A stretch of DNA of 64,000 nucleotides from Cirrosporium novae-zelandiae (taxonomy: Eukaryota), in NCBI GenBank assembly GCA_026023565.1, contig JAPETS010000019.1, positions 248,001-312,000 on the forward strand, written 5' to 3'. The first letter of the stretch is position 1, and every line of letters starts with the position of its first letter. This document shows positions 13,965-64,000 of this stretch, piece after piece. The notes below the pieces were generated by a model, which was not told the DNA's origin, made no database searches, and saw only the letters and a program-made list of their open reading frames with translations. Position numbers and translations under genes: made by a program.

Positions 13965-16900
13965 ATGCCACCCAAAAGATCAAAGGGGAAAGAGCCCATG
14001 GGTCATGGCCCCGTGGAAGATACTCCCATGGAGGATGTGTCACTTCAAACCTCTACTAATGATGATCTGGCCCTTGAAGCTCGACCACGTAAAAAGGCTA
14101 AGGCAACTAAAAACAAGGGCATAACAACAAAAGAAGGCTCTCCAAACGAGGATGAAACAGAGACCAAAGCCGACCAGGAACCTGAACTGCCAGCTGACTT
14201 TGGCGGTACTTTGGATCCTTACATGGGTAAGATACAATTTCCCATTCTCCTTGTAATGATACTGTGATCACTAACCCGCTTTTAGCGTTCAACCTCCAAA
14301 CAATCCCAGTTCCAGAAGGTGGTTGGGATGACCTGATTACTATCTTGGAGAATGACCAAACTCATGACGGTGATGAAGAAGGACAAGGTAAGCATTTTCT
14401 AAACCTCAGTATCTATGGGAACTAATTCATAGCTGTAAAGCACTGCCCACTATCCGAGAGATTTTACCAACAAATGTGAGCGGACCGGGTCGGGCAACCG
14501 GTGTCAACCGACCAGCAATCGACCGGAACTTGCCCCCTTTGAGTGATATCTCTCTCATCTTCCGTGATTTGGTCTCAAACGCAACCACAAAAGGATTAGA
14601 AGTTGCCCTTAAGGACCTCGCTAAGGCCGAATGCATACTAAGAGTGGCAACGTTATGTTCCGGAACAGAGGCTCCAATCCTCGCTTTGCAGCTGATCCAA
14701 GAAGGTAGATATCAACTTATAGTTTCTTGATCCCGAGTTTGCTTACCTTTTTTATAGCTTTTACTGTGACCAATCCTGCTATCACATTTGAGTTCGAGCA
14801 TCTTTTTAGTGCGGAGATTGAACCCTTCAAGCAAGCATACATCGAAAGGAACTTTAGACCACCAATATTATTCAGAGATATTGTGGAACTGGCTCGTACA
14901 AAATCTGGGTATGTATGAACTCACGAGCCAGAATTTTCGACTAATTTTGCTGCAGCCTAACTGCATATGGATCGGTCCGGGACATTCCCAAAGGCATAGA
15001 CATTCTCATTGCAGGATCATCATGCGTAGATTATTCCAGTTTGAACGTTTCCAAGCCTACTCAGAATGGAGAATCGGAGAATACATTCAAAGCTGTCATT
15101 AGCCTAGCCGCTATTGCACACCCTACGATAGTCATCTTGGAGAACGTCGATGGTGCTCCCTGGGCTAACAACAAGGCTCGCTGGGAACGAGCAGGGTATC
15201 GCGCAGAATTCTGCAAGGTAGATACAAAGGACTTCTACCTACCACAGACGAGGCAACGCGGATACATGATATGTATCAGAAATGATCTTCAAGGAGCACA
15301 GACTGCCGTTGAGCAGTTTCGTGCTGTGGTAAAGAGTTTGCAACGGAGAGCTAGCTGCCCCGCGGAAGACTTTATGCTTCCCGATACTGACCCCAAAGTC
15401 ATACAGGCTACAGAGGAGATCTTAAGAACTGGGCAAAATCAGCTTGGACGCAAAGTCGAGTGGATAAAGTGTAAAGGTGAGTATCGAACCTTTCGCGAAG
15501 ATTTACAGCTCGGTCGCCAACGGCCCTACACCAACTGGCGGGAGTCTGCATCGAACAATCTCCCCGACCATGCGTGCAAAGACTGGGGGAAGTTCCAAGT
15601 GGAGCGCGTTCTTGACTCCCTGGATGTGGCCTATCTCCTAAGCGTTAAGCGGGGTTTTGACTTTTCTTATAAGTCGTAAGTATTTCCGTGTCATTTCCTT
15701 TACTTAGGCTAATATCTTTAGGCGTGTTCTCGAGCTATCGCAGTCAATTAACCGAACTCAAGACAATAACCCCTTCGGAATTTGTCCCTGCATAACCCCA
15801 ACTGGAATCCCCTTTTTAACTTCGCAAGGTCGCCAGATGGTCGGACTAGAATCTCTAGCCCTCCAAGGTATACCTATCGACAAGCTCCTTCTAACACGGG
15901 AGAGCCAGAAGAATTTACAGGACTTAGCTGGAAATGCTATGACTACAACGGTAGTGGGTGCCGTCCTAATCTCGGCTCTAATTCTTGCGTACAACTGCGT
16001 TATTGAAAATAGAACCTCGGACCAATTTGCAGATGTTAAGGCCTCAGAAGGCAAAGCAATAGCGAGTAACGATTATGAGTTCGTGACCCAAAGATACGAA
16101 GGAAGCGCCCTTGTTTTTAAGCCTAAATCCAACGACACACGTGATTTGTTCGCCGGAGCAAAGGCTACTGGATGCCATTGCCATTGTGAAAAGGGTTTAG
16201 TCGTTATCCCACGAAAGATCTTGACATGTCAAAAATGTGGACATACAGCTTGCACAAAATGTGCAGGAAATCCTCGACACGTTTACGGTCCTCCGCTCAG
16301 CCGACCACACGCTAATCCCGTATTGTTTGAATCTCTCCTCTTAGCGGCTTTACCAAAACGCTGTAAATTTGGCAAATTCCCACACCTCTCGGACTTTGAT
16401 AATGGCGAACTGCTAGGAGACAGGGTAAGACGTGCTTTAAACGGTGAATTCCGCTTTCAGTCCATTAGGCGCTCTGAAGTTTGGACAGCTATATATGAAA
16501 GCCAATACGGCCACTTGGAGGCGACCTTATCTTCATCTCAAATAGTTTGGCGTATATACGCCAAACCCTCCGCTAATGATTTGAGGTCAATTCAACAAGA
16601 GCTAGTTCCGCACTTTGGGGAAATGGTCATCAAGCACCCCACCTACGGGCTGACTGACGGGTTGTGGAAATTCCGTTCCCTGAGGGAACGGACTGTTCCC
16701 GTTAGGATTTCCGGGGTGGGTATCCCAGTTCCCTCCTTCGAACAGACCGTCGGGCTCCAGGGCGAGGAGTTTACTAGCAAAAAAGTATTTCCAATCCTTC
16801 GAGTAGAAACCCCGGGAAATGCGGGTTTCGACAGCGATATCAACGGAGAGTATACTCTTCTTCAAGATTGTGGGACATCTCTCGGGTGCTTGCACCAGAG

Positions 16901-19900
16901 GGATGGGAGCTCCCCTGGTGAGGGGGTTTATCTGTTCCTAGACCCTGGTTCAATCCAGGACCAAGCTGAGGACTGTTTTGTGTTCGCACAACACAAAAAT
17001 TGGCTGGGTCTAGGGCAGAGAAGGCCCCTGATAGCTAGGCTGCCATCCTTCTGGAGGCCAGGCATGACCCAGGGTAATGTGAAACTTCAGTGTGTCGCAG
17101 TGCAGCCATGGATCTCGTCCCCAAACACGGAACTGGTTACTTCAGAAGAGGACGGATGCGTAGCTCTGCATCCAGTCCCAGGCCGGATCTCCGTAAACTA
17201 CGGGAGCTGTCGCAAAAGATACATCTCTATGCTCGATGTCACCGTTGCTCTTGAATCGAATAAGGACGAATGCTATACATGGGCCCAGGGGGACTGGCAG
17301 TATGCAAATGTTAATTCTGAAGCCAAGGTACTCCAGGACTTTGCATGGCTTATCAACAGCGTACAAGGACTGAAAAATTATGATGAGATCCTTACAGAGC
17401 CTATGAGTGTTGATGTGTGCCTTGCTTGTTATCCCCAAAAACCAAATATAAAATGGAAGTGGACAGAAAAAGGCCATCGGTGTATGCCAGTGGCATATGA
17501 AGATTTCAGAGAAGCCGGGTATTTTGAAGCTTCGCTCAAGTCGCGACCACGACCCTTTATGGTCAGGTATCGCATTGATGATGCTGATTATGGCCACCTC
17601 GAAATTGGTTTGAACGTTACGACACTCCTTCACAGGGCTGTTTCAACATGGGTGGAAGGAAAAGGTGAACTCGGGCTTGGGACCGAGTTGGAACCGGAGT
17701 TGTCATGGAGTCTCACAACCGATTATGCCCCGCTGTTAAGTGAAAGATATACTTTCACTATTCCCAATAACGACCATGATACCTTAGCATCCCAACCCCT
17801 ACATTTCAAAAAAGCTTTATTTGATAACCAGCGGCGATCCTTATCTTGGATGCTGCGAATGGATGTTTCCGGGTGCAATTTCACTGAAGAGGAAGTGGAA
17901 GAGGCATGTCTAGCAGGCACTAAGTGGCGTGCAGAAGGTGTTGCAAAACATACAACCAGCTTTCGTGGCGGAGTCCTGGCAGATAAAGTGGGATTCGGCA
18001 AAACAATCACGACATTAGCACTCATCTCCTCGACATTAGAAGATGATAAACGTCATGCTCAACAGTCCAGAGACGAGGATAAGATGGCGGACGCCTTTGA
18101 TAGTGTTGACAAAGACGCGGGCCTAATACGCACTCACGCAACTTTAATCCTTGTTCCCAAGACAATTATTTCCCAATGGCGCTCCGAGATAACCGAATGC
18201 CTTGGCACCAATTGCCGCGTTGTGCTACTGAGAGATATCAATGATCTGAAGCGGACAAGGATCAGAGACATCGAGCAAGCTGATATTGTACTTGTTTCTG
18301 TTAAGCTTCTCGAGGGCAGCTATCTTAAGCGACTCGCGAGCCTTGCAGGCCTATGGGAACCCCCAACTTCTACGGGCCGAGCTTTTGGGGCTTGGTATAC
18401 CCAGGCTGTCCAACGCCTCCTTAACCACCTGGATATCCTCAAAACGCAGGGACCACAGGCATTGGATAATTTTCTTGAACAACAACGCTCAAATGATATT
18501 GCAAGCAACACCCTAGTCAATTTAGTTCCAGAACCGTCCAGGAGAAAGAAAGGAAAGAAAAGAGGCGCTTCTGATGAAAAAGAGATAAAGGATATAAATG
18601 ATAAATCAGAACAACCCTCTAACAAAAAGACGTTTCTTGAAAGATTCAAAGAGGAGCTCAAGCTATCTGATGAATTTTTCGAAAAGCCAGTTGGAAAGGG
18701 CTTTACTCTCACCGGAACAGACTACCGCGATATCACTTCACCTTTATTGGAGTTTTTTGATTTCAGACGACTCGTAGTTGATGAATTCTCATACCTTGAA
18801 AAAACTTTACAGACGTGCGTTCCTAAGATGAATGCCCGTTCTCGGTGGATCCTATCAGGAACACCCCCACTTGATAGCTTCATGTCTATCAAGTCTTTTG
18901 CAAGCTTGCTTGATATTAACCTTGGGGTTGATGAAGTTCAAGATACAGCCACTAACCCCGAGTTATTCCAATCGTATGCAGCCATTCATTCCCCATATTG
19001 GCACAAGAGACGTGATGCAGTTGCTCAACGATTCCTTAACTCCTTTACACGTGCCAACCAGCCTGCGGCGAACATCAAATCGTCCGAAGAGTTTCGATGC
19101 GTCGTTTTACCCGGCGGTGAAATGTCCTTGTACTTGGAGCTGCAAAATACTATCGTTGCTCAAGATATGCGACTAAAAATGCCAAGACAAAGACACGCGG
19201 CAGGAGATCGTTCTCAACAAGCTTTGCTTAGATCTAAGATCAACGAGACTCCAGAAGGGGTTCTACTAGGCTCCACTTCGTTTTTCGACAGCGAAGGGTA
19301 CACTCGCAGGGCGAAAGAGGCTAATCTGGAGACCGATGGGTGGAATCCAGCTGCTATGGCTGGACAAATGTTTACCTTACGTCTCCATGAGCTGCAAACA
19401 ACGTTTATAGCAATAGTTAAAGAATTTCGTCAAGCACTCGACCTTGAAATACAGGTGAACACTTGGATTGATCAGCATGGGTCGGCGCCCGACGAAACTT
19501 ATTTGAGAGCAATGGGAAGATGGGCCGCCTTGATAAAAGAGTTTCACAACAATGAGTACGGCGATATGGATGTCTCGAAAGTTCTTCGCTCAACCTTTGA
19601 AAGGCTTAAGGAAGAACCTCGTGGCATATCGGTAGTACCTGATGATAGCGCTGCCAAAAGTTTACGCGAAGCTTGTAGCCAGATTCGAGGCCTAGCGACC
19701 AAATTAGTTGAGCAAAAACGAGCAGTCAGGTTTTCGAAAACAGTACAAGCCACGATAAAGTCAACAAATGCTAATGTGGAGAAAGAACCGTTGAAATGTT
19801 CTCACTGCAAAGATTACATCAATTGGAATGGTGGATTCCACATTTCGACATTCTGCGGGCATTCGTATCATAAGACATGCTTGGAACAGGCTGGCAAGAA

Positions 19901-20616
19901 TGAAGGATGCTCTGCCTTTGGATGTTTAGCAACTATGGATGTTGGTAGTGCGCCAAGCTCCGACCTTTTCAGACCAGTTGTACAGGATAGCCCTATTTCT
20001 AGCGTATATGGTGAGAAGATGAGACGAATTCTTCATCTCATCTTCCTCGAAATTAACAACCATGAAAAGGTTATAATATTTTGTCAGTTCAGCACCATGA
20101 TTAAGATGGTTACGGAGGCGATCAGAAAATTCAATATAAACTGCGAGAACTGTCTTGAGGGAGCATTAGCTGCCGACAAAGTCATAACGAAGTTCAAGAC
20201 CAATAGCTCCCTAAGGATTCTTATTTTGGACCCTACTAACTCAACAGCCGCCGGGGCGTAAGTATATTCGTCTACCCTCTAAGTAAAATTATCACTAATC
20301 GCTCTCATATAGAAACTTAACCATGGCAAATCACGTTATCTTCCTATTTCCCCTGTCTGGTCTCCAAAGACCCGAATATATGGCGAAAATGGAGCAGGCT
20401 ATTGGAAGAGCGAAAAGGTATGGGCAAAAGAAGAATGTGTATATCTACCACTTCCTGGCTCTTCGGACAATTGATGTGAACGTGATTGAGGAGAAACGAG
20501 AACAGATACTGGTCAAGCGGTCCAACACATATACCATGGTACCTAAGGAGCAGGTCCAGGCTGGCGAGGGGCATCTTGGAAGCGGCGCTCTTAGTGAGCA
20601 GTATGGCAATACTTAG
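13965..20616 (+). CDS. DNMT5: DNMT5-family C5 cytosine DNA methyltransferase fused to a SNF2 ATPase with inserted RING-like finger; ~7 exons
   Basis: MTase motifs LRVATLCSGTEAP (I), AEIEPFKQAYIERNF, AGSSCVDYS (IV), ILENV (VI), PQTRQRGY (VIII), QDLAGNAM (X). SNF2 motifs GGVLADKVGFGKT, LVVDEF, WILSGTP, IIFCQF, GANLT, EQAIGRAKRYGQ. RING-like CSHC..CGHSYHKTC..C. Introns at ~14227, 14388, 14705, 14909, 15676 and 20258 join the ORFs in frame. The 5' exons are less certain (one AAG acceptor at 14440 is needed). Confidence 0.9.
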
Positions 20617-43686: not shown

Positions 43687-46600
43687 TTATTCGTATAGGG
43701 CACCGGCAGCTGTTAATATGGCCATTGCTTTTCTCTTTCTTTCGTCAAAGACTCTCAATCCAGGGCGATGCGTCCACCATAAAGACGTATGCCCATTCTC
43801 ATCTCTAGAGTTGATATCAACATTTTCGTCCAGCAGCAATTTCACTACCGTTTTATATCCTTTTTCAGCTGCATACAATAACGGTGTAAGCCTATAATAA
43901 TCTTTACTGTCAGTTTCGGCTTTTTGATCCAGCAGCAATTTCACTATCGCTTCTCGTCCATATTGAGCTGCGTACGACAATGGCGTACGCCCAAAACCAT
44001 CCTTACTATCAGTTTTAGCTTTGTAGTGCAGCAGCAATCTCACTATCCTTTCATGTCCATTTTGACCTGCATACGACAATGGCGTACGCTCCCCTTTATC
44101 CATGAGATTTATTCCATCGTCACTATTACTAAAGCTCTTAATAATAGCCTCGACGACATTTTTTAAATTATAATATGAAGCGATATGCAATAATGTCTGT
44201 TGTGTATATATAATGTAGGGGGGATAACCACCAACGCCAATACATTTAAGCTTCATCCAACGGTGCAAAAGCTTATTTTCCGGCCAATTCCAGTAATTTA
44301 AAATCTCGTCTTGATTTTCATTCACCCCGTTTTGCTCTGCTATTTGAATATGTAGTGGCCAAAACTTTATAGCATATCGTAGCAATGGATAATGGGTCTG
44401 AAACTGAATGGAAATTTGCTCTTTTGCATCCAGACTCCTATCCTCTAGAGGGGTTTGGGCTTTTTCAATCTCGCTTATTGATCGATGAATCTCTTCCATA
44501 ATGAAATATTTAATGCACCTCTTCGATAATTCGAAATGTGCACGACCAATAAGGATTTTATTTGACTGGAAGTCGAATAAAATCTGCAGTCCTTCTTCGA
44601 TAAAGTAATCTTGGACTGACTGATGAATGAACTGTACAATTGGTATATTCATACTTTGATGACTAACTTCGCCAAGACCTCCAGAAAGATATTTGACACG
44701 ATTTATCATTTCGGGTTGTGTAGGTTTCTGATAAGGAGTGTCATCGTTGATGGCGATAGCACAGTGGAGTTCCATTAATGTAAGGGATCGAATTGCCAAG
44801 CATATCCATTGAATGAGTTCCCATGACTGAGATAGATCATCTTCGGCATCGGCTTCTCTTTTAAGACTCTCTAGGATATACTTGTAAAGACTGTTCAGCT
44901 CCTTCGGTATCTTCTGTAAGCCAGCTTTAATCTTATTTATAGGGTTTCCCTTTGCACACTGTAAGATAGCACGAGGAAGGACAAGAACAACCCATTGGAA
45001 GCTGCCGGAAGACCTGTTTAGAATTTCGTCTTCGATTGACGCCCATTCTTTAGGATATTTTGTTGTTGGAGCTGGCCTTGAATGTATTTTCTGATATCCT
45101 CATAGTTTTGTTGCTCAACACAAATCTCAAGCCCACCAAAAGAAGTAACGAAAGGATAATGGCAACAGGAAAAGCATATACTTAGTTTATGTGAGGCAGA
45201 GTTGCATGCTAATTGTAAGGCACCGAACCAATGAACAAGTTCACAAGCTGCTTTTTCGCCGGCTTCGTCAAGGGCATCAATAAATATTTTTATATCCCCT
45301 TTTCTGAGGACGATTGGGAGAGCGGCTTGAACAAAGTCCTGTAATTCCTGTGGGTGCTATTCCCACCTTTCTCCTTCTTTCCCTATGCTCTGGCATTTTT
45401 TGTTGAAAACTTGAACAACTTCAGATAGGACGCCGGGAAATCGTTCTATTAACTGATGCAAAAGTGACCGGAAGAGTCCTAAAGGCGTTTTCTGGAGATC
45501 GTTGCCGCGGCCATGGAAAAAGAATGAAAGGATAACAAAATTGTTTGAAGAACGAAATTCATCATTATTTATATGCCGAAGAGCGTATTTAAGCAGGATT
45601 GGTTTTCCTGCTCCTGGTTTCCCTTTGATCCAGAGCAACCTTCCGCTCTCAGAAAGCCATTCACAGGTCCCGTTGGCTGCGTGTTTAACGTCATTCTCGC
45701 GATCATTTAATTGTATAAACGACAAAGATTGTAAGCAAGCTAGGGTTATTAGTGAATCATCAAATCGCTGGTAGCCTTCGTCGCCAGGATTCGCGAATTT
45801 TGCTATATCCTAGGGTTGTTAGTCTAATCTACTAAAAAGTAACTAGTTCATCATATAATTACTTCATGATTTGCCTGAATTGGTAGCAGCGGGCGTCCGT
45901 TAACAAGTTTTGCCGACTCTTTAGAGACAACCTTGAATGGATTAGCAAGAAAATATTCATTAATTATACAACGACAGAAATTTACCAGTCCTATTCCGAG
46001 ATATGGTAAGGTTTCGTAGAAGCAAGATAAACCAAAATCAATAGATTTTGGCAGCACCCATCCACCAAAGGATTCTTCTACATCAGCCAGCATTTCAGAA
46101 TCTTATTTTAACAATTTGGCGATGTTATCATTGACCCGCATATGACCTGCTTTAAGCACTGAGGCTACAAATAAGACAAACGGTGCTAGGTTAGCCCCTC
46201 GATCTGGTGTGCCTAAAAAGGCCACGCCTATCGTGCACTTGTCTAACTGCTGCAAATGAGGACTGGCGTCATTCTTAGATAAGGAGAGAGCTTTTTTCGT
46301 CACCAAACCACCGAGGCTATGCGCTATAAGTATTATGTTTCGATTTCCATATAATAAATCACAGTTAGAAATCAATCATCATTACAGTATACAGGTGGAC
46401 AAGCCTCTTACAGATTTATCTTTTGCCCTTAGACGTACAAGGTCTCCATTTAGGGCTGAAGCATGGTCACGGAGGTTTCCCTGGCCCACAGGTCCTAGAA
46501 ATCTAGTAACATCTGCATCATATCCAAATGCCAGAATTCGGGCACTCGGCATATCCTTGGTTAAAAGATCAACTGGCTAGTATATCCCCGTTTTCTTCTC

Positions 46601-49294: not shown

Positions 49295-49580
49295 CAGATA
49301 CCGAATATCTCTAAGAGGGGACCTGGCTACGCCTTTAAGCGATATTTTATTTTATAGTAATAGGATACGGCGCGCCTTCAACGCCACCATGCATTACTCG
49401 AGTACTACTAGCGCTGAAGCTGCTGTCATCTCACCTAGATCTATTTGCAGTTGGATTTTGTAGGGCCATGACGTTCCCAAGATCTGCAGCTGGGTGCTGG
49501 GTACTGGGTGGTTGCGCAATAATTATATATGATAGATCGCCCAGCCTTGCCCAGATGGCCGGATAAAATTCATAAAGTGG

Positions 49581-52022
49581 ATGAGGCCGAAGATGTCTAC
49601 GGCTTCAGAGACATCTGACGACGACAGGTCACTGATTGGACCTTTCGAACAACGAAGATCCACGTTTCGAACTGGGGCACAAGCCCAGGAAGCCACGAAG
49701 GGTATTGAGGCGATAATCCGTAAAAAGCTTCCACTAAAAAAAAAAAGCAATTACAAATATGAACCTATCAAGGCTCATGAGGAGATGCGAATCTTAACCG
49801 TGTTTGCTGGAAAGTCAGAGGATGAACTCGAATGTATGCTTTATAAAAGCAAATTGCCGTCAACTCCAAATCAGATATCATCATCAACATTACCACTCTC
49901 GCCGTATTATGCACTTTCATACTGGTGGGGCGATGATTATCCAAAAAATAAAATCAAGATATATGATGACACAGGCGCTCGGGGGCCAACACACGGCGTG
50001 GCAGATAGCTTTAATTCGTGGGGAACATTCTATATCCGTGACAATCTCAAGGCCGCACTTCAGCAATATCGGCAGGGCAATAAAAATAGAGACATTTGGA
50101 TTGATGTTATCTGTATCAACCAAGACGATAAAGATGAGAGGGCGGCCCAGGTATCAAGGATGCAGGACATTTACATCGAGGCACAGAATGTGTGGATTTG
50201 GCTGGGAGCAGGAGAGCCAACGACGAAGGAAACCTTTGATTTCCTCAAGGAGGAGATTCTGGATCTCAGACGCTTAGATGGTCTTATTAAAGACAAGTCT
50301 ACCTCGGAAAAGTGGCGTCTGGTAATCAATCTTATTCGAATCAAGTGGTTCAGTCGGCGTTGGGTTGTCCAAGAATTGGCTCTTGCTAAGAGGGCAACTG
50401 TGCGATGGGGGACTGAAGAGATGGATTGGGCAAACTTCGCAGAGGCCATCGCCTTGTTCATGACTAGGTATGATGAAATTCGAAGGATCATTATCCGCTC
50501 AGAAAAAAAACAACAAGGGGTTCCAAACGATAGCGTGGCTGCTTTGGAAGCTCGGCGTCTCGGTGTCAATACTTTGGTGAATGCCACCAGCAATCTCTTC
50601 CGCAAGGACGAGAATGGGGTAATCCGGCAACGACTTCTGACTTTAGAAGTCCTGGTGTCGTCGTGGCTTTTAGCATTTGAAGCCTCTGACCCACGCGACA
50701 CGGTTTATGCAGTGTTATCGCTGGCCAAGGATACCTCTTCCACGACATCCGAACTCGTCGCAAGAACAAGCTGGACAATGCCAAAGGACAACGGGTTTTG
50801 TTTAACTAAATTCGGAGAGGTAGTTCTTGACTGGGTCCTCAAGCCGGTGCTTTTCAAACCAATACTTTGGCTCCTAACAGTAAGTGAGAATCACAACGCA
50901 ACGCTGCCAGATACAGTGTCTTCCAATATAGTACCTACCGACACCCGTATCTTACCTGACTACAACAGAAGTCTTGCCGATGTTTGTGCCGGCTTTATGG
51001 AGTACTGTATTGAGAGATCTAAATCCTTGGATATTCTTTGTCGACATTGGGCTCCCCCGGAGCGAGAGCTCACGCCTCTCGAGAAGATTGAACGAGAAGA
51101 TAACCAACTGAATGAAACAACAATGCCAACATGGATACCATCTATCAAGGAGCACGCCTTCGGAGAACCTTTGGGGGTACTGTTGGGCCGACATAATGGA
51201 GATAGTCTTGTTGGCAGCCTAGAGCGGCAAAATCAGCAGAACTACGATGCGTCTGCTGGCCTTTCTGCTCATGTCAAATTTGGCAAATACAACATTCCTG
51301 GAGTTCTCAAGGCTAAAATAACAAAAGAGATCAATATAACATCGCTCAATACTATTCCCGACCCAGGTGCTCCATCGCCAGATTATTCGGCTAGATATTC
51401 GATACCACAACAAGTCCAATACGACGGTACATTACATGTCAAAGGCTTCCGCTTGGATAGGATCAAATCCTCCTATCAGGTCTTAAATGGCGTCATAGAT
51501 GGCAAAGCTCTTGCCCTCGGAGGGTGGCCGCGTCAGTGTAACAAAAAGCAAGTGCCAGATCAATTATGGAAAACACTTGTTGCCGATCGAGGTCCCAACG
51601 GCACCATCACCCCCACATGGTATCGACGAGCTTGTTTGGAGTGTCTTGCAAAAGTCGACGTCAATGGAAATCTTTCAACGAAAGAGCTGTTAACAAATGA
51701 ACATACTCCAAGACAGATGGTATCATTCTTGGAAAGAACGACACGGGTTATCTGGAATAGGAAGTTCTTCTCATCATTTGATGATCGGCGGTATACGTTC
51801 TTCGGGTTGGGCCCGTCAAAAACCAAAAACGGTGACGTGATTTGTATTTTATTTGGCTGCAGTGTCCCTGTTCTACTCAGAGAGAAGAGACTACAGAACG
51901 GCAACTTATATTTTAAATTCGTTGGAGAGTGCTACGTTCATGGAATGATGGATGGAGAAGCTATACCTGCCCAAAGGCCAGTATACCCCTACGACAAGCA
52001 AGAAACTTTTGAGCTTAGGTAA
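49581..52022 (+). CDS. HET-domain protein (HET-6-like architecture), intronless
   Basis: YYALSYWWG, IRDNLKAAL, IWIDVICINQDDKDERAAQVSRMQDIYIEA, WFSRRWVVQELALA, ASDPRDTVYAVL, C-terminal GDVICILFGCSVPVLLR and FVGECYVHGMMDGE. Start is 49581 or 49593. Confidence 0.92.
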   Translation: MRPKMSTASETSDDDRSLIGPFEQRRSTFRTGAQAQEATKGIEAIIRKKLPLKKKSNYKYEPIKAHEEMRILTVFAGKSEDELECMLYKSKLPSTPNQISSSTLPLSPYYALSYWWGDDYPKNKIKIYDDTGARGPTHGVADSFNSWGTFYIRDNLKAALQQYRQGNKNRDIWIDVICINQDDKDERAAQVSRMQDIYIEAQNVWIWLGAGEPTTKETFDFLKEEILDLRRLDGLIKDKSTSEKWRLVINLIRIKWFSRRWVVQELALAKRATVRWGTEEMDWANFAEAIALFMTRYDEIRRIIIRSEKKQQGVPNDSVAALEARRLGVNTLVNATSNLFRKDENGVIRQRLLTLEVLVSSWLLAFEASDPRDTVYAVLSLAKDTSSTTSELVARTSWTMPKDNGFCLTKFGEVVLDWVLKPVLFKPILWLLTVSENHNATLPDTVSSNIVPTDTRILPDYNRSLADVCAGFMEYCIERSKSLDILCRHWAPPERELTPLEKIEREDNQLNETTMPTWIPSIKEHAFGEPLGVLLGRHNGDSLVGSLERQNQQNYDASAGLSAHVKFGKYNIPGVLKAKITKEINITSLNTIPDPGAPSPDYSARYSIPQQVQYDGTLHVKGFRLDRIKSSYQVLNGVIDGKALALGGWPRQCNKKQVPDQLWKTLVADRGPNGTITPTWYRRACLECLAKVDVNGNLSTKELLTNEHTPRQMVSFLERTTRVIWNRKFFSSFDDRRYTFFGLGPSKTKNGDVICILFGCSVPVLLREKRLQNGNLYFKFVGECYVHGMMDGEAIPAQRPVYPYDKQETFELR

Positions 52023-55736: not shown

Positions 55737-56655
55737 CTAAGCGCTTAGCTTATTTATCAGATCGCCACCCAGGAGGGCCTGTACATCCCGTTTCTTATAT
55801 ATCCAGTCAGCTTCTGCTCCCACACGAATCCCATCACTTCATTCGTTTCAATAAGTGTTATGCATAGAGTGGTGGCTGTGCTAGCCTCTTGTAGGGGTTG
55901 AAGATGTTCAGTATGGTCAATATGATCCGGCTATGCCTTGTGCATTGCAACGCAGGAGGTACAGGCACTTGATTTGGAGATACACTTCGACTAAGGTGCG
56001 GGCCAGGTGCAGGGAAGCATGTCATACAGTAGTACAAAGTAGAAAGGATTTATACTCGAGTAGGAAGCTTAGGGAATGAAGATGGAAGGCCAGCTTCCAG
56101 CCTTGTGTCACCACCAGTCACCACAGACCCTATCGGAACTAACCTAGAGTTGATCAAACGGTTGGGAGTTGGCCACCCACCAAAAATCTACTGCCCCCTA
56201 ACTACCCATCCGAACCTCTACCTCCCCCATCCCCTGGCCCTACCCGGTCTCGGGGTTTTATTTGTCTTGCATAGAGGGCAGAAAAATCCTCCTTGACGAA
56301 CATGGCGAATGGATGCATGGGTGATTTACGCTGTTTTATTTCTTCATCGTGGTCTTGGTGAGAAAAAGCGGCAAGGTAGACTACTGTAATGTTAAATTTC
56401 GTTGACTACCCAGGTATTCGGCAGAGAAATGATTCCCGCACGAAGATGCCTAGCACCCTAGGTATCTACAATTCATCGGCAACTACCACAGTAGTATAAG
56501 CCTTCCAACACCCACGAATGATAACATCAACGGTCTGCGCCTCTAGACCCGAACCTTTGTCGTTCTAAGGTGGCTAAGCATATTGCTTGTCATGCTTGTG
56601 ACCAATAGCCACACAGATCTCAAAGATCTGCAAACGACGTTGAATCAGAATCATT

Positions 56656-58239
56656 ATGTCAATTCAACAGTCTCATGCGGAAGTGTTTATGCACGCCCAA
56701 TTCAATGTCCATGCTCTTATCAAACTCGCCACGCGACTTCGAGATCGGCCATGTATTTGCGACCTGTCTCAGAAACCTAGTAATGGATGCCTGAATTGGG
56801 CAATCGTTATTTCTTTCGATGATGGAGTGGAGTGGCTATTTCGCTCTCCTCGGAAGTATTATGCCCTAAATATGGATACTGCGGGAGCCTTGATCTCAAA
56901 TGAGGCTGCAACTTTGAAATACATCAGAATGAATAGCACGATTCCTGTTCCAGAGGTGTTCGAGTATAGGTTAGATATCCCAGTATTATATGTCATGAAG
57001 TCTATTAATAGCCACAAAGCTCTACACCATTTAACGAAATCGGGGTACCCTTTATTCTAATGAGCAAAGCTCGAGGAGTACCGCTTAGCACTCGGGGCTG
57101 GAACTCCCAACCTCACAAGGTTCCAGGTTCTCACAACAATCCACCTCCATGTCTTACGAGTAAGGAAAAGGAAAAGGTTATGAAACAGCTGGGAGAAATA
57201 ACTTCAAAGCCGTTGCATCTGCAGTTCGACAAGATAGGATCGATTGTTGAAGAAAAGGGGATCTATAACGTTGAATCATGCCTCTCACCAGGATTCATTT
57301 TGTACGGCTGGGACACGTTACAAGACGGCTTCTCGCGTGGCCCTTTTGCACATGAAAGTTCTTATTACAGATCGCTCGTATCGTCGTTCATCCTCCACGC
57401 AAAATACCTCCCACTGGACCATCATGCCTTCTTTGCTCCTGTTCTAATACCCAGCGAATATGAATAATTATGACACCTACCGTTCTGCAACTGACCGGTG
57501 GAATGATTTTACCACGGTGGGTTCAAAGACTAACAGCGGAAATAATCGGTTAGACTATGTCATAGCTGGCCAATTCCTTCAAGACATGATACCTTCCCTT
57601 ACTAAATCGCACAAGACCCCAAAAAGTTTTGGCGATGGATTCCCACTATATCATCCGGACCTCAGTACCAACAATATCTTCGTGGACCAAGATTGTAATA
57701 TCACTTGCATCATTGACTGGGCATTCTCCTCTTCCGTCCCTGTGTCTACCCCCCTAATGACGCCAGGCCTGCCTCATCCAAGGGACGACATGGACCCATT
57801 ACTTGTGGCCGCCTTTAGAACTGGATTTATAGATCACTACTTTAAAGGAATAATAAAGATGATAGATACTAGCGTTTGGGACAATGCCCAAAAGATACGG
57901 CTCTTCACACGGTTAGTAAACTTGGACGCTTTGCAAGACTATGAATACTTCGTGGAGTTATATGCTTTGACGCACAAGGGAAAACGGACAGACATACCAA
58001 CAATTTTCAAAGAAATGCAGAATCAAAAGGTATTTAGGGATAAATTAATGAAGCTTATAGCTGACGACCGCCCGGCAAGCGAAACCGAAAAGGAAGAAAG
58101 GGAATACTTTTCCCACGTTGGGCCTGAACGTCATGCGGTATCGAAAAGGCTGACTCTGGCTTCGAAATTAAGCCGTGGATTTGTTGCAGATAGAAGGCCG
58201 TGGCATTGGATCGAAGAGGTGACAACCAGCCATCTATAA
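56656..58239 (+). pseudogene. APH/choline-kinase-like phosphotransferase with a frameshift near 57460
   Basis: GCLNWAI..FDDGVEWLFRSP, NEAATLKYI..TIPVPEVF, GVPFILMSKARG, IGSI, HPDLSTNNIFVD, IIDW. Intron ~56970-57019; the reading frame shifts at gaatatgaataattat. Confidence 0.8.
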
Positions 58240-59787: not shown

Positions 59788-61330
59788 CTAATTAACGTTT
59801 ATTAAACACTCTCGCAAAGGTAGAATGTCATCATCCCATGAACAGCCAGCAAAGCTGACTAGCTCACCCAACGTCTTTCCGTGTATATGCCGTAGCACTT
59901 TATTTAGTAGAGGATTCTGTTTAGCTGTTTGTGTCTCGTAGACATAAACCTGAATAGACCGCGAAACCTGATGGAATAATCGGTCTCTCTTGCTCTCCTT
60001 GAGCTCTTTGAAATTCTCCGGTAGTTTCAGCATTATCTCCCCGTTATAATACAGAAGACGAGGTGCTCGTACACGAAAGATCGACGGCCCAGCCCAGGCG
60101 GACTGCTAGTCTATCACGCTGGAGATTTTGTCTTGGTGGATGAATAGATTTCCGTTGTCGATATCTCTATGCCATAACCTTGGAGAAAGTAAATCCGCGT
60201 CCTGGGGAATAATCGTTGACATTACGTCAAGGCATTGTTTTAGAAAGTCGATGTGGGCTTGTGGGGAATTATGCCCTGAGGAAGCCTGCCAACGATCCAT
60301 GGTGGCCTTTGGTTTGGCATGGTGGGTAATCCATGCAATTCCGCGGTGAGTGATTGCTTCGACATACTCCTGTGTTTTCCCTATGGGTTGTAGGTTAATG
60401 AAGGCCCTATACTCTGAATAGTAGATACATCTTACAAGGGCCACGATTGATATCCATCCCTGATCTTTCCTTCTCCCAAAATTCTCTCTCAACAGTAGGA
60501 CCAATTACAAACCGGTTCTTGACATCTTCTTTGACGCTCATCGGAGTGTCGCTGGTAACTTCGGCCCTTTCACATCCCTCAAAGCAATCGCTTGCATAGT
60601 AGATAGCACCAGATCTTAAAGGAGGTGTTATCAAGTAGGTGAATGCAGCGAAAGCGATCTGAGGATAAAATGTTTCTTACATGCTAAATGAGATAGAAAG
60701 GAACTTTCTCTCCATTTCAACAATGTCCTCTATAATGCTAAGCTTGTCTTCCAATTCCATATCATCCCAGACCTCTGTAGGATGTTTGCCCTTCACCTCC
60801 TCCTTAATAATATACTCCGAGCCAACGGAGTTTTTTGTGGTAGCGCCCCAAGCTAAAACATTAGAAACAGGGATTTGGAGTATCGATTGAGCCTAGAGAT
60901 ATCATTAGCATCAAATAAAATAGTATGGGGAATTGGTCTCACGAAGTCCATAGTTGCTACCTCCGATGCTGTCGTGTACATGGGCGGGCCTGCATTGGGG
61001 TGAGGTATTCTAGCCATAACTACTGACCCATCATCCATCTGCAGTCGGAACACCTTATTAAAATCCCCCTCCCCTATCTTAGTCATAGACACACATTCCC
61101 GAGATCCAATAACCGTAGCAGCCTTCTTAATCTCTTTGACGTTCAAGCGTCTGGAGCGCTCACGCAGTTGGTCCTCTTCTCCTCAGAGCCAACGCCCTGT
61201 TGTATAGCGGAAGAAAGCATCGGGATGATTCTCTAGAGCCGGAGGAATTACGCATAAAAGTTAGGATGAAAGCTTGCGTGTAGTGGAGTATTGTCTATGC
61301 TTTATAGTACAAATACTGCGCACAAGACCT
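59788..61330 (-). pseudogene. Aim9-like/APH phosphotransferase pseudogene, apparently 3'-truncated
   Basis: FFRYTTGRWL*, EGDFNKVF, ARIPHPNAGP..TASEVATMDF, LWHRDIDNGNLF..VID*Q. Stops replace expected Trp at 61185-61183 and 60108-60106, and there are frameshifts. 5' end approximate. Confidence 0.82.
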
Positions 61331-61576: not shown

Positions 61577-61653
61577 CCGAGGGTGAGTCGCATGTTTGAA
61601 TAGGCATTCACGACATTGGAGAGTGCACATTCAAACATGCGACTCACCCTCGG
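61577..61653. repeat. Perfect 25-bp inverted repeat with a 27-bp spacer
   Basis: CCGAGGGTGAGTCGCATGTTTGAAT (61577-61601) / ATTCAAACATGCGACTCACCCTCGG (61629-61653). Confidence 0.93.
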
Positions 61654-62395: not shown

Positions 62396-63105
62396 CTAAC
62401 TGAAGATCTTTTCACTATACTTTCGTTGATAAGCTGTAGCAACACGATCCATTGTTGCAGAATCCGGTAGCACGTCGAACTTATTCGCATTCATCCTCCG
62501 AATATAGTTGCTGTCCAGCGGTCCATTCTGCTTATCTCTCAGGTGTTTTAATATCGCAATAGCGTCATGCAGATCAAATTCGGCTTTTCGTCCTCTGTCT
62601 GCAGAATATATCCTTCTTAACTTTCGTTCCAAAGCCCATTCAAGTGGCGCTGCAAGAACATGAAGGTTTGGCCCCTCCCAAAGGATAATATTTTGTTCCA
62701 AGGCTTGCTCAAAAAGCTCCACTCTAGATGTCTTGGTGATGAATAATGCCAAATCTTCATTGATCCACTGATCATTGAACTGCAGCTTTCTTCCCACTTT
62801 CTGTATTGCTTCATGAAGGGGTTCTTTGATATCATTGTCCTGTGCCCACTCGGGATCGAGAAGGTAATCGATATCGCCAGTAGCGTCGCGACTTTTGAGA
62901 AAAGAAACCGCAAGAAAGCCACCAGCGGTAATGATTCTGATAGGTGAAAATGCGTAGAGAAAAGCATCCTTTCCTATTTCTATGTCAAGGGCTTCAAGAC
63001 CTAGGGCAAGAGGTGAGTGAGAGGAGACATTTGAGAAAGTTCACCATCTAACTCACCATTTTGAAAGTCCGCCGCATTGAGTAGCTCCTTGTTGTGGTGG
63101 GGCAT
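62396..63105 (-). CDS. Putative Pol-beta-fold nucleotidyltransferase (AbiEii/MenT-like), 217 aa; 2 exons
   Basis: Exon 1 63105-63057, intron 63056-63001 (GTGAGT..CTAG), exon 2 63000-62396, 654 nt in total. Reads IITAGGFLAV..RDATGDIDY (hGG..TxDxD), WINED, WALERKLRR, DLHDA. Confidence 0.75.
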
Positions 63106-63469
63106 CGCAAGCAGTGTTTTGGGTTGTCAAGTTGGATAAGTTAAGAGTTGTCGTATTAGAAGTATACTACGAATCATCATTATCATAATGCGTTATCATA
63201 ATACATGATGGAACACAACCACGTTGTTCAGTCGAGCTCTCATGGTTGCTAATGAACTGGTGAGGCGGGATGGTGGGGGAGAGGCCTAATATTTGCCATG
63301 CACGTGCCACGCCCTTAATTGCATCGGGGGTCTAGCTCTCCGCAGCATAAGTTACATTAAGTTCCACCGAGTTCACACAATATTGCAGTCTTCGTAGAAA
63401 GTATCATTCAACCTACCTAGTCACCTGGTTCTCCTTTGTCAATCTTAACAATAGATATTTTTCCATTCA

Positions 63470-64000
63470 ATGGCCCGTCGTCGTCCCAAAATCACTTGGT
63501 GGATGCGAATTCGTCGATTCATCTATCATTTCCATTCTCCCTTTCATTTGCGCTCGAGTATTATTCGATTAAGTCATCATCACAAACGACCATACCTCAC
63601 CCTTCTACGTCTCTTTATACCATTTCCATCTTGGTATTTTCCAGTCCCCGATCCTGTTGCCCTCCAAAATATTTTCGAAAACCCATCCTTACTTCGTTCT
63701 CGTTTGGGAGACATTGTCAATCTACGAACTATTCCTATATGGCGTGCGCGCGATACCCCCCTTCGCTCCCTCTACCGTCTTTATGAAATAATGGCATCAG
63801 GGCATTATGTCCTGATGGGGGCAGAAACAGAATATTTCTGGTATCAATCTCGGAAGCAGTGGGAATTACATTCAATTGAGGACCCTAAAGATCCAGATCC
63901 TGTGCGATATGCTATATTGGCTTGCTTAGTAGAAGAGCTGACCGTTGCCTTTAATTGGAGACTAAGTCTTGGTATGCGTCGAAACGGCAAACATTTCTAT
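63470..64000 (+). CDS. Hypothetical protein divergent from the nucleotidyltransferase; runs off the window end
   Basis: 177 stop-free codons from ATG 63470: MARRRPKITWWMRIRRF..PFPSWYFPVP..RDTPLRSLYRLYE..EYFWY..DPKDPDPVRYAILACLVEEL..AFNWRLSLGMRR. Absent from the ORF track because there is no stop inside the window. Confidence 0.75.
   Translation, partial: MARRRPKITWWMRIRRFIYHFHSPFHLRSSIIRLSHHHKRPYLTLLRLFIPFPSWYFPVPDPVALQNIFENPSLLRSRLGDIVNLRTIPIWRARDTPLRSLYRLYEIMASGHYVLMGAETEYFWYQSRKQWELHSIEDPKDPDPVRYAILACLVEELTVAFNWRLSLGMRRNGKHFY

Follow-up and report, generated by a model that had tools for sequence, protein, structure and literature searches.

A DUF1814-class nucleotidyltransferase and its conserved neighbour: a candidate two-gene module of filamentous ascomycetes

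Do two genes that stand side by side at the end of a fungal contig segment belong together and, if they do, is one the poison and the other the antidote? The window, i.e. the whole stretch of DNA analyzed, comprises 64,000 nucleotides of Cirrosporium novae-zelandiae (contig JAPETS010000019.1, positions 248,001 to 312,000), a fungus of the class Xylobotryomycetes. At its right-hand end the window carries a spliced nucleotidyltransferase (NTase) gene and, on the opposite strand, an intron-less open reading frame (ORF), here called the partner. An earlier inspection of the letters alone (the sequence-only reading) had taken the two for a head-to-head, co-regulated module similar to bacterial toxin-antitoxin systems. 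To judge from sequence conservation, both genes are far beyond chance ORFs, and they appear to make up a two-gene module of filamentous ascomycetes, formed by a catalytically complete NTase of the DUF1814 superfamily and a conserved partner of ~248 residues. The pair is in all likelihood real and previously undescribed; the toxin-antitoxin reading is plausible, yet unproven.

Linkage and joint descent of the two genes

JGI metagenome contigs scanned with the NTase alignment returned 11 loci. One (L011, 24% identity) was dropped, being a chance match inside a large bacterial secreted-protein ORF, and two others (L005 and L006), identical over 7,755 bases, were counted once. This leaves nine distinct NTase loci, and the partner adjoins the NTase in eight of them. 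For named assemblies, 120 rows were listed per family, and 14 locus-tag prefixes are common to both lists. NTase and partner are linked in 13 of these 14 assemblies and have consecutive locus tags in ten, namely ETB97_010267/68, DSM5745_06824/23, N7462_004357/58, EAE97_002410/11, EAF04_010477/76, McanMca71_002986/85, FQN54_003305/04, AJ80_04022/21, FQN49_003562/63 and FQN50_004702/03. The hosts of consecutive tags are Aspergillus alliaceus, A. mulundensis, Penicillium macrosclerotiorum, Botrytis byssoidea, Stromatinia cepivora, Microsporum canis, Arachnomyces, Polytolypa, an Arthroderma species and Emmonsiellopsis. Tags are three apart in Emydomyces (PRK78_004542/45), and NTase and partner reside on contigs of equal size in BJX99DRAFT and BDW59DRAFT; six additional pairs were found on equal-size contigs of 3.1-28.6 kb. 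Linkage extends to NTases only 37-41% identical to that of the window (L007-L010). Both families occur in Aspergillus, Penicillium, dermatophytes, Onygenales and Botrytis, and the named rows, among the matches listed, come from four classes of Pezizomycotina. In Sphaerosporella brunnea (Pezizomycetes) a 434-residue gene model (P0143) joins a complete NTase to a partner lacking the first ~50 residues, and may correspond either to a true fusion or to the merged annotation of a tandem pair.

Orientation is not conserved. The sequence-only reading had described a head-to-head layout, and had proposed a co-regulated pair. The divergent layout is found in the window only, seven of the eight distinct partner-bearing metagenome loci being convergent, and one (L007) tandem, with the NTase first and a gap of 307 bp. 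Stop codons lie 74-120 bp apart in five convergent loci (L001, L003, L008, L009 and L010), ~80 bp apart in L002, as estimated from alignment ends, and 751 bp apart in L005/L006. As orientation varies between loci, a shared promoter is not a general explanation for linkage. Where stops are 74-120 bp apart, the 3' ends of the two transcripts must either run into each other or make use of a common terminator region of very small size, and an arrangement of this kind could permit antisense coupling. A shift from the convergent to the divergent layout by tandem duplication of the pair, followed by the loss of the outer copies, may be imagined as a matter of speculation.

Flanking genes differ at every locus, and include an aldo-keto reductase with an amidase, a sugar transporter and an APH-like gene. 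A conserved third gene was considered and rejected, since the window contains no equivalent of the APH-like ORF found upstream in L006, and flanks differ everywhere. Neighbouring genes can stay together for a long time without sharing any function, and the adjacency could in principle reflect inherited synteny or chance. A lack of any functional tie is highly improbable, and already disfavoured by the data: the adjacency survives changes in orientation and the replacement of all flanking genes, spans four classes and several paralogous lineages, and the trees of the two proteins match.

In the trees obtained from 29 NTase-partner pairs, 13 of 26 splits are common to both proteins, whereas shuffled labels yield 0.25 shared splits on average and never more than 2. 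The correlation of patristic distances (Mantel r 0.94) was reached by none of 5,000 permutations. L005 was entered in these trees with a shifted start, its in-frame stop being read as intronic. Some of the agreement would result from common descent alone. More telling is that NTase and partner trees deviate alike from the species tree, with a seven-member clade which mixes Aspergillus, Penicillium and the onygenalean Arachnomyces, and a second group of Eurotiales placed elsewhere. The approximately unbiased (AU) test, applied to Eurotiales as a taxonomic group picked after the trees had been seen, speaks against their monophyly in either gene (p-AU 0.00024 and 0.00083, hence rejected).

NTase copies of different lineages coexist within single genomes in Paecilomyces variotii, Aspergillus alliaceus and Microsporum canis. 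The 214-residue model AJ80_09298 (P0222) of Polytolypa hystricis is made up of two fragments, the first from a partner and the second from an NTase devoid of the catalytic N-terminus, and looks like a decayed second copy. Because of paralogous pair lineages, split Eurotiales and the decayed copy, the family is to be regarded as accessory and multi-lineage, rather than as a one-to-one housekeeping family. The linkage test suggested in the sequence-only reading thus gives a strongly positive answer, the two families being adjacent across fungal classes and co-diverging, and the distribution looks accessory and paralogous; the divergent layout is the part that did not hold.

The pairs have been inherited, duplicated and diversified together, and the two genes therefore seem to act on or with each other. 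An adjacency which outlasts rearrangement, changes of the flanks, duplication and hundreds of millions of years, along with matching trees, argues for functional coupling of NTase and partner, which we hold to be very probable.

The two genes and their products

The intron of the NTase gene and the intact product of 217 residues, both described in the sequence-only reading, were confirmed (coordinates are in Table 1): the spliced product is identical to P0001, an NCBI hypothetical protein from a Cirrosporium novae-zelandiae metagenome-assembled genome. The intron-less homologue L001 reads straight through the point at which the gene of the window is interrupted, and L005 features an apparent intron at the matching point, with an in-frame stop just past the conserved DFENG. 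The search for NTase homologues at E<=0.001 retained 154 sequences among 306 candidates. The window holds a single copy of the NTase gene and a single copy of the partner gene. Among 822 candidates, one longer form was found, a 527-residue protein from Ophidiomyces with a long low-complexity tail, in which neither an NLR nor a partner part was detected, so that a solitary NTase, outside longer architectures, is weakly favoured. An extension was also observed at L005 2670-3779 (= L006 5755-6864), where the NTase ORF continues for ~167 codons of low complexity, rich in Ser/Thr/Tyr/Gly/Lys, before a stop.

Exon 2 matches the Pfam family DUF7582 (PF24483) with 34.3 bits, above the gathering cut-off of 27, and P0001 with 34.0 bits; a match at E<=1 was obtained for 49 of 54 aligned homologues. 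As the match is modest and spans profile positions 50-199 only, the clade of the window is a divergent branch of DUF7582. Of the two family names which the sequence-only reading had proposed, DUF7582 is thus the right one, and DUF6036 is absent among the 25 families shown of 26. No paper on DUF7582 was found by full-text literature search, and none on DUF6036. P0001 does not match Pfam AbiEii (PF08843), and only 2 of the 54 homologues do so at E<=1 (best 0.034). With the AbiEii model of PADLOC, one of five NTases scanned gives a match, at E 0.02.

Four AbiEii motifs have been defined and found to be required for toxicity (Dy et al. 2014, PMC3985639, in the part of the article available). The corresponding NTase motifs pointed out by the sequence-only reading are all there, as A-G43-G44 ... 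R54-D-A-T57-G-D59-I-D61, K143-L-R-R146 and D159-L-H-D162, and the 54 aligned homologues all share, without exception, G43, G44, R54, T57, D59, D61, K143, R145, R146, D159 and D162. Motifs I and II are of the AbiEii type, with hGG, 14 residues and D59-I-D61, R54 lying in between, a spacing longer than that of pol beta. The Lys of motif III is K143, inside LERKLRRI, and motif IV reads D159-x-x-D162; the "+" of motif IV is inexact, F158 standing directly before D159 and K155 four residues upstream. The profile of the 54 homologues, run against PDB sequences, picks up AbiGII (9hlo_B) at E 0.0013, in an alignment which spans GG...RSTVDID, EKLQTI with the motif III Lys, and the DxxD in DFYD. T57 aligns with the Thr of the RSTVDID segment of AbiGII, beside the DxD. 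In AbiEii, the antitoxin induces a self-phosphorylation which takes place on T65, and R63 touches the gamma-phosphate, according to the available portion of a recent preprint (bioRxiv 10.64898/2026.01.19.700257); from the motif layout, T57 and R54 may be the counterparts of T65 and R63.

The AlphaFold2 model of the NTase, based on 54 sequences, has a mean predicted local distance difference test score (pLDDT) of 95.4 and a predicted template modelling score (pTM) of 0.90. Compared by VIA-align with 48,161 chains, it matches best Pb27 of Paracoccidioides (5uvd; Z 8.5, 183 residues aligned, root-mean-square deviation 4.2) and MenT1 (8an4; Z 8.5, 168 residues aligned, root-mean-square deviation 4.0). 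These are followed by ANT(2'') (4xje; Z 7.3, 154 aligned), TglT/MenT3 (6j7n; Z 6.8, 167 aligned), MenT4 (6y56; Z 6.7, 167 aligned), JHP933 (4ok0; Z 6.4, 152 aligned) and LnuA (Z 5.8). Ranks 1-15 of a repeat comparison are all occupied by MenT1, MenT3 (Z 7.5), ANT(2''), TM1012 and JHP933. Z values are moderate, yet the aligned regions span nearly the whole NTase model. With the exception of TM1012, these structural matches are listed as members of the DUF1814 superfamily in the accessible part of the same preprint (bioRxiv 10.64898/2026.01.19.700257). Foldseek returned nothing at E<=0.001 for the NTase model, the weak top rows being pol-beta-type transferases. An NTase fold is hence predicted, with the best VIA-align matches in the DUF1814 superfamily, and the AbiEii/MenT-type layout proposed in the sequence-only reading is in line with both the AbiGII profile alignment and the MenT1 fold match. 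On these models the protein seems to be catalytically active and to belong, by structure, with MenT and AbiEii; profile hidden Markov models (HMMs) file it under DUF7582 and not under PF08843.

The presence of ANT(2'')-Ia (Z 7.3, 154 aligned) and LnuA (Z 5.8) not far below MenT1 is what would be expected if the pair served small-molecule modification or self-protection, the NTase nucleotidylating a metabolite or an antibiotic as these enzymes do, with the help of the partner. We regard such a role as improbable: neither biosynthetic nor transporter genes recur next to the pair, the flanks of which differ at every locus, and AbiGII-type proteins can be aligned both over the invariant R54/T57 segment and over the arrangement of motifs III and IV.

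The partner starts on the opposite strand, at the distance from the NTase gene indicated by the sequence-only reading, and its frame is open up to the window end. All of its 177 residues in the window can be aligned to the 248-residue P0271, with 73% identity. A word-indexed search found 209 homologues among 257 candidates, an exhaustive search 325 cluster representatives at E<=0.001, and most of the 120 homologues listed are 235-265 residues long. The Arg-rich N-terminus is coding, because homologues can be aligned from one of the very first residues onward (from residue 1 in P0271). The last ~71 codons are known from the model of the record itself (P0274, 204 residues). P0274 splices out partner residues 15-58, a stretch kept uninterrupted in 10 of 10 homologues read, and its intron is therefore probably an annotation error. 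A distant member of the family (P0218) is listed under Quercus suber, and probably stems from a fungal contaminant or endophyte in the oak assembly.

Partner proteins feature 21 invariant positions, many of them charged or aromatic. They are basic (pI 9.2-10.0), and the first 60 residues, with hardly any acidic residue, have a pI of ~12, and might serve for targeting or as an arm that binds nucleic acid; NTases are acidic (pI 4.9-6.1 in the five sequences computed). In Pfam, no match at E<0.05 was found for 58 members of the partner family (best E 0.06), and PADLOC and NCBIfam gave no match. The predicted structure is mostly helical (pLDDT 90.5). VIA-align against the 48,161 chains yielded a best Z of 4.5, none reaching 5, an absence which does not prove a new fold. 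The best Foldseek matches have E 3.5 in PDB and E 1.5 among the BFVD viral models, the partner profile found RPL26 only, at E 0.059, among PDB sequences, and the ESM Atlas gave no usable match.

Bacterial and archaeal genome contigs scanned for the partner gave 14 pattern matches, none of which was confirmed. The parallel scan for the NTase gave a 46-residue match (L012) over long, mutually overlapping and doubtful ORFs, judged to be spurious. As both scans rely on fungal-specific peptide patterns, bacterial relatives may have been missed. The resemblance of the partner to proteins encoded beside bacterial DUF6036 genes, proposed in the sequence-only reading, was not recovered, no bacterial or archaeal relative and no family match having been found.

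These features bear on the polarity of the pair. In bacteria, an MNT antitoxin AMPylates its HEPN toxin (PMC11586414, as described in the part of the article available), and the partner might similarly be a harmful effector, which the NTase neutralises by covalent modification. The many invariant acidic and basic residues of the partner could form an active site, and an acidic NTase is not what is expected of an RNA-binding toxin. The best structural matches of the NTase are, however, DUF1814 toxins and not MNT antitoxins and, as a weaker argument, neither a nuclease-like nor any other effector fold was matched for the partner. Reversed roles seem quite improbable.

Surroundings of the pair in the window

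The sequence-only reading had mentioned kinase pseudogenes near the pair. Weak APH-like signals are indeed present in two ORFs, both below the Pfam cut-off, and more extensively, as weak APH/choline-kinase-like signals, in two runs of short ORFs in changing frames (Table 1). Some neighbouring ORFs in these runs are in the same frame, separated by a single stop. The runs may correspond to the broken kinase genes of that reading, or else to exons separated by introns. Between the APH-like remnants and the NTase gene sits an inverted repeat able to form a hairpin. Genes of the HET/NLR allorecognition type are found 10-19 kb from the pair; one encodes a HET-domain protein, and another an ankyrin-repeat protein which looks like the tail of an NLR. 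Far to the left, a C-5 cytosine DNA methylase ORF is directly followed by a long ORF with an SNF2-related domain, a layout which we take to be that of DNMT5-type maintenance methyltransferases.

Table 1. Features of the window discussed in the text (positions refer to the 64,000-nucleotide window; strand cell empty where none applies)
Feature	Position	Strand	Remarks
NTase gene	63105-62396	-	two exons; spliced product of 217 residues
NTase exon 1	63057..63105	-	ATG 63105-63103; 16 codons plus base 1 of codon 17; equals P0001 residues 1-17
NTase intron	63001..63056	-	56 nt, GTGAGT...TAG; removal restores the frame and the conserved junction FQNG/LEALD
NTase exon 2	62396..63000	-	residues 17-217; coding 63000-62399; stop 62398-62396
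Motif I and II codons, G43-G44 ... R54, T57, D59, D61	62867..62923	-	predicted metal and nucleotide site
Motif III/IV codons, K143, R145, R146 ... D159, D162	62564..62623	-	motif III Lys, motif IV DxxD
Spacer between start codons	63106..63469		364 bp
Partner gene	63470..64000	+	ATG 63470; first 177 of ~248 codons, intron-less, truncated by the window end
Inverted repeat	61577-61653		77 bp; 83% identical to its own reverse complement
Run of short ORFs	59791-61182	-	weak APH/choline-kinase-like signals
APH-like ORF	60109-60504	-	Pfam E 0.0014
APH-like ORF	57448-58236	+	Pfam E 0.025
Run of short ORFs	56644-58236	+	weak APH/choline-kinase-like signals
HET-domain ORF	49536-52022	+	828 codons
Ankyrin-repeat protein	43687-45099	-	GPI-inositol-deacylase-type winged helix
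Methylase and SNF2-related ORFs	14945-20261	+	C-5 cytosine DNA methylase ORF 14945-15679, then a 1,517-codon ORF

Possible roles of the module

The nearest DUF1814 NTase toxin-antitoxin systems are MenT1/MenA1 and MenT3/MenA3 of Mycobacterium tuberculosis, and AbiEii/AbiEi of Streptococcus agalactiae. The fungal NTase resembles MenT in its fold, which matches MenT1 (Z 8.5, 168 of 195 residues aligned) and MenT3 (Z 7.5), and AbiEii in featuring the GG of motif I, the Arg and the DxD of motif II, the Lys of motif III and the DxxD of motif IV. As in AbiE and MenAT, a dedicated partner gene is found next to it. Unlike in those systems, the host is a eukaryote, and the two genes are separate and mostly convergent, and do not form an antitoxin-first bicistronic operon. 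The NTase is not recognized by the PF08843 HMM and, in contrast to AbiE, no winged helix-turn-helix (wHTH) domain and no likeness to COG5340/COG4861 (AbiEi) or to MenA is detectable in the partner. Pb27 of Paracoccidioides brasiliensis (5uvd) is likewise fungal, similar in size and a joint best structural match, with 183 of 218 residues aligned, and is listed in the DUF1814 superfamily in the portion of the preprint available (bioRxiv 10.64898/2026.01.19.700257). Yet it is only 12% identical, was not recovered by sequence or profile search of PDB, and belongs to a different family. Type VII HEPN-MNT modules also associate a minimal NTase with a helical partner, but there the NTase is the antitoxin, and no HEPN-like match was found for the fungal partner in Pfam or by VIA-align.

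Of the explanations considered, a toxin-and-neutraliser mechanism is the one we favour, with a probability of roughly 40%. The NTase would transfer nucleotides to an RNA 3' end or to a similar acceptor, and its activity would be harmful, or in need of gating. The partner would be a dedicated regulator or neutraliser of the NTase, perhaps acting at the invariant R54/T57 segment, where the self-phosphorylation site of AbiEii/MenT toxins is located. The module would work in a MenAT/AbiE-like way without belonging to those systems. Enzymatic activity, acceptor, toxicity, direct binding and phosphorylation switch are all things that we infer. The enzyme class, the conserved R54/T57 segment, and an accessory, multi-copy and partly decaying distribution make the mechanism plausible. 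A more specific proposal, by which the pair would be a fungal counterpart of MenAT/AbiE, i.e. a toxin nucleotidylating tRNA or other RNA, checked by an unrelated partner of unmatched fold, and spreading and persisting as co-diverging linked pairs in several paralogous lineages, is rather unlikely to hold in full.

Several observations weigh against the toxin-and-neutraliser mechanism. Both proteins are well conserved, with 50-70% identity between fungal classes, and such conservation is at least as easily reconciled with a function useful to the cell as with a conflict element. Fusion in one protein, should the Sphaerosporella model be genuine, is more often seen between subunits that cooperate than between antagonists. 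The partner has no likeness to the antitoxins AbiEi and MenA in Pfam, PADLOC and NCBIfam. The NTase being acidic, the basic RNA-binding surface expected of a toxin would be hypothetical. Pb27, the nearest solved fungal relative by fold, is a protein without an assigned function which binds ATP and CTP (PMC11646218, from the part of the article available), and ANT(2'') and LnuA, which modify small molecules, score nearly as high as MenT. HET/NLR-like genes are close to the pair of the window only, none being found beside the pair in other loci, and no conserved link between pair and allorecognition genes emerged across the loci compared. Linkage itself has exceptions: in L004, a 1,020-bp contig, the 378 bp available downstream contain no partner, and Emmonsia crescens EMCG, 1 of the 14 assemblies compared, shows no sign of linkage.

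Some of these data would suit better a cooperative enzyme pair with a normal cellular role, in which neither protein is toxic, and the partner is a specificity or targeting subunit, or a protein substrate, of the NTase. An analogy would be provided by the non-canonical poly(A)/poly(U) polymerases and the adaptors they work with. That NTase and partner are strongly conserved, with numerous charged and aromatic positions left invariant, agrees with this, and so do the fused gene model of Sphaerosporella and the basic N-terminal region of the partner, which could bind nucleic acid; Pb27 binds nucleotides, and in the available part of the article describing it no toxicity is reported (PMC11646218). 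The distribution does not agree as well. The family is not one-to-one, there being several paralogous pair lineages, a split of Eurotiales and a decayed copy; the accessory pattern is unusual for a housekeeping enzyme, and the named rows, among the matches listed, come from four Pezizomycotina classes only. Cooperation is the main rival of the toxin-and-neutraliser mechanism, with a probability of about one in three.

Literature data had not anticipated a fungal pair. According to Dy et al. 2014 (PMC3985639), in the portion of the text available, the DUF1814 homologues of fungi lack genetic linkage to putative antitoxins, and the accessible text of Cai et al. 2020 (PMC7450476) repeats that not all DUF1814 members are linked. 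Two genome papers published in 2026 list, in the parts available, AbiEii-domain proteins of fungi with neither function nor partner. In the literature searched (AbiEii/DUF1814 in fungi, and toxin-antitoxin systems in Pezizomycotina; supplements excepted), the partner or the linkage is described nowhere. What appears to be new is that a eukaryote combines an NTase of the DUF1814 class with a cognate partner, and that this partner is unrelated to known antitoxins and unmatched in fold.

One branch of the fungal DUF1814 proteins thus has a faithful, co-evolving neighbour, itself a family devoid of annotation and of structural match. The pair is a candidate toxin-antitoxin-like or enzyme-regulator module in eukaryotes, and provides a first functional handle on two uncharacterised fungal families. 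If the more specific proposal of a fungal MenAT/AbiE counterpart is true, the role of the module in fungi could be that of an addiction module, of abortive infection against mycoviruses, or of a cell-death switch. Should the NTase turn out to be controlled by its partner in a novel way, the view of how this class of enzymes is regulated would be widened.

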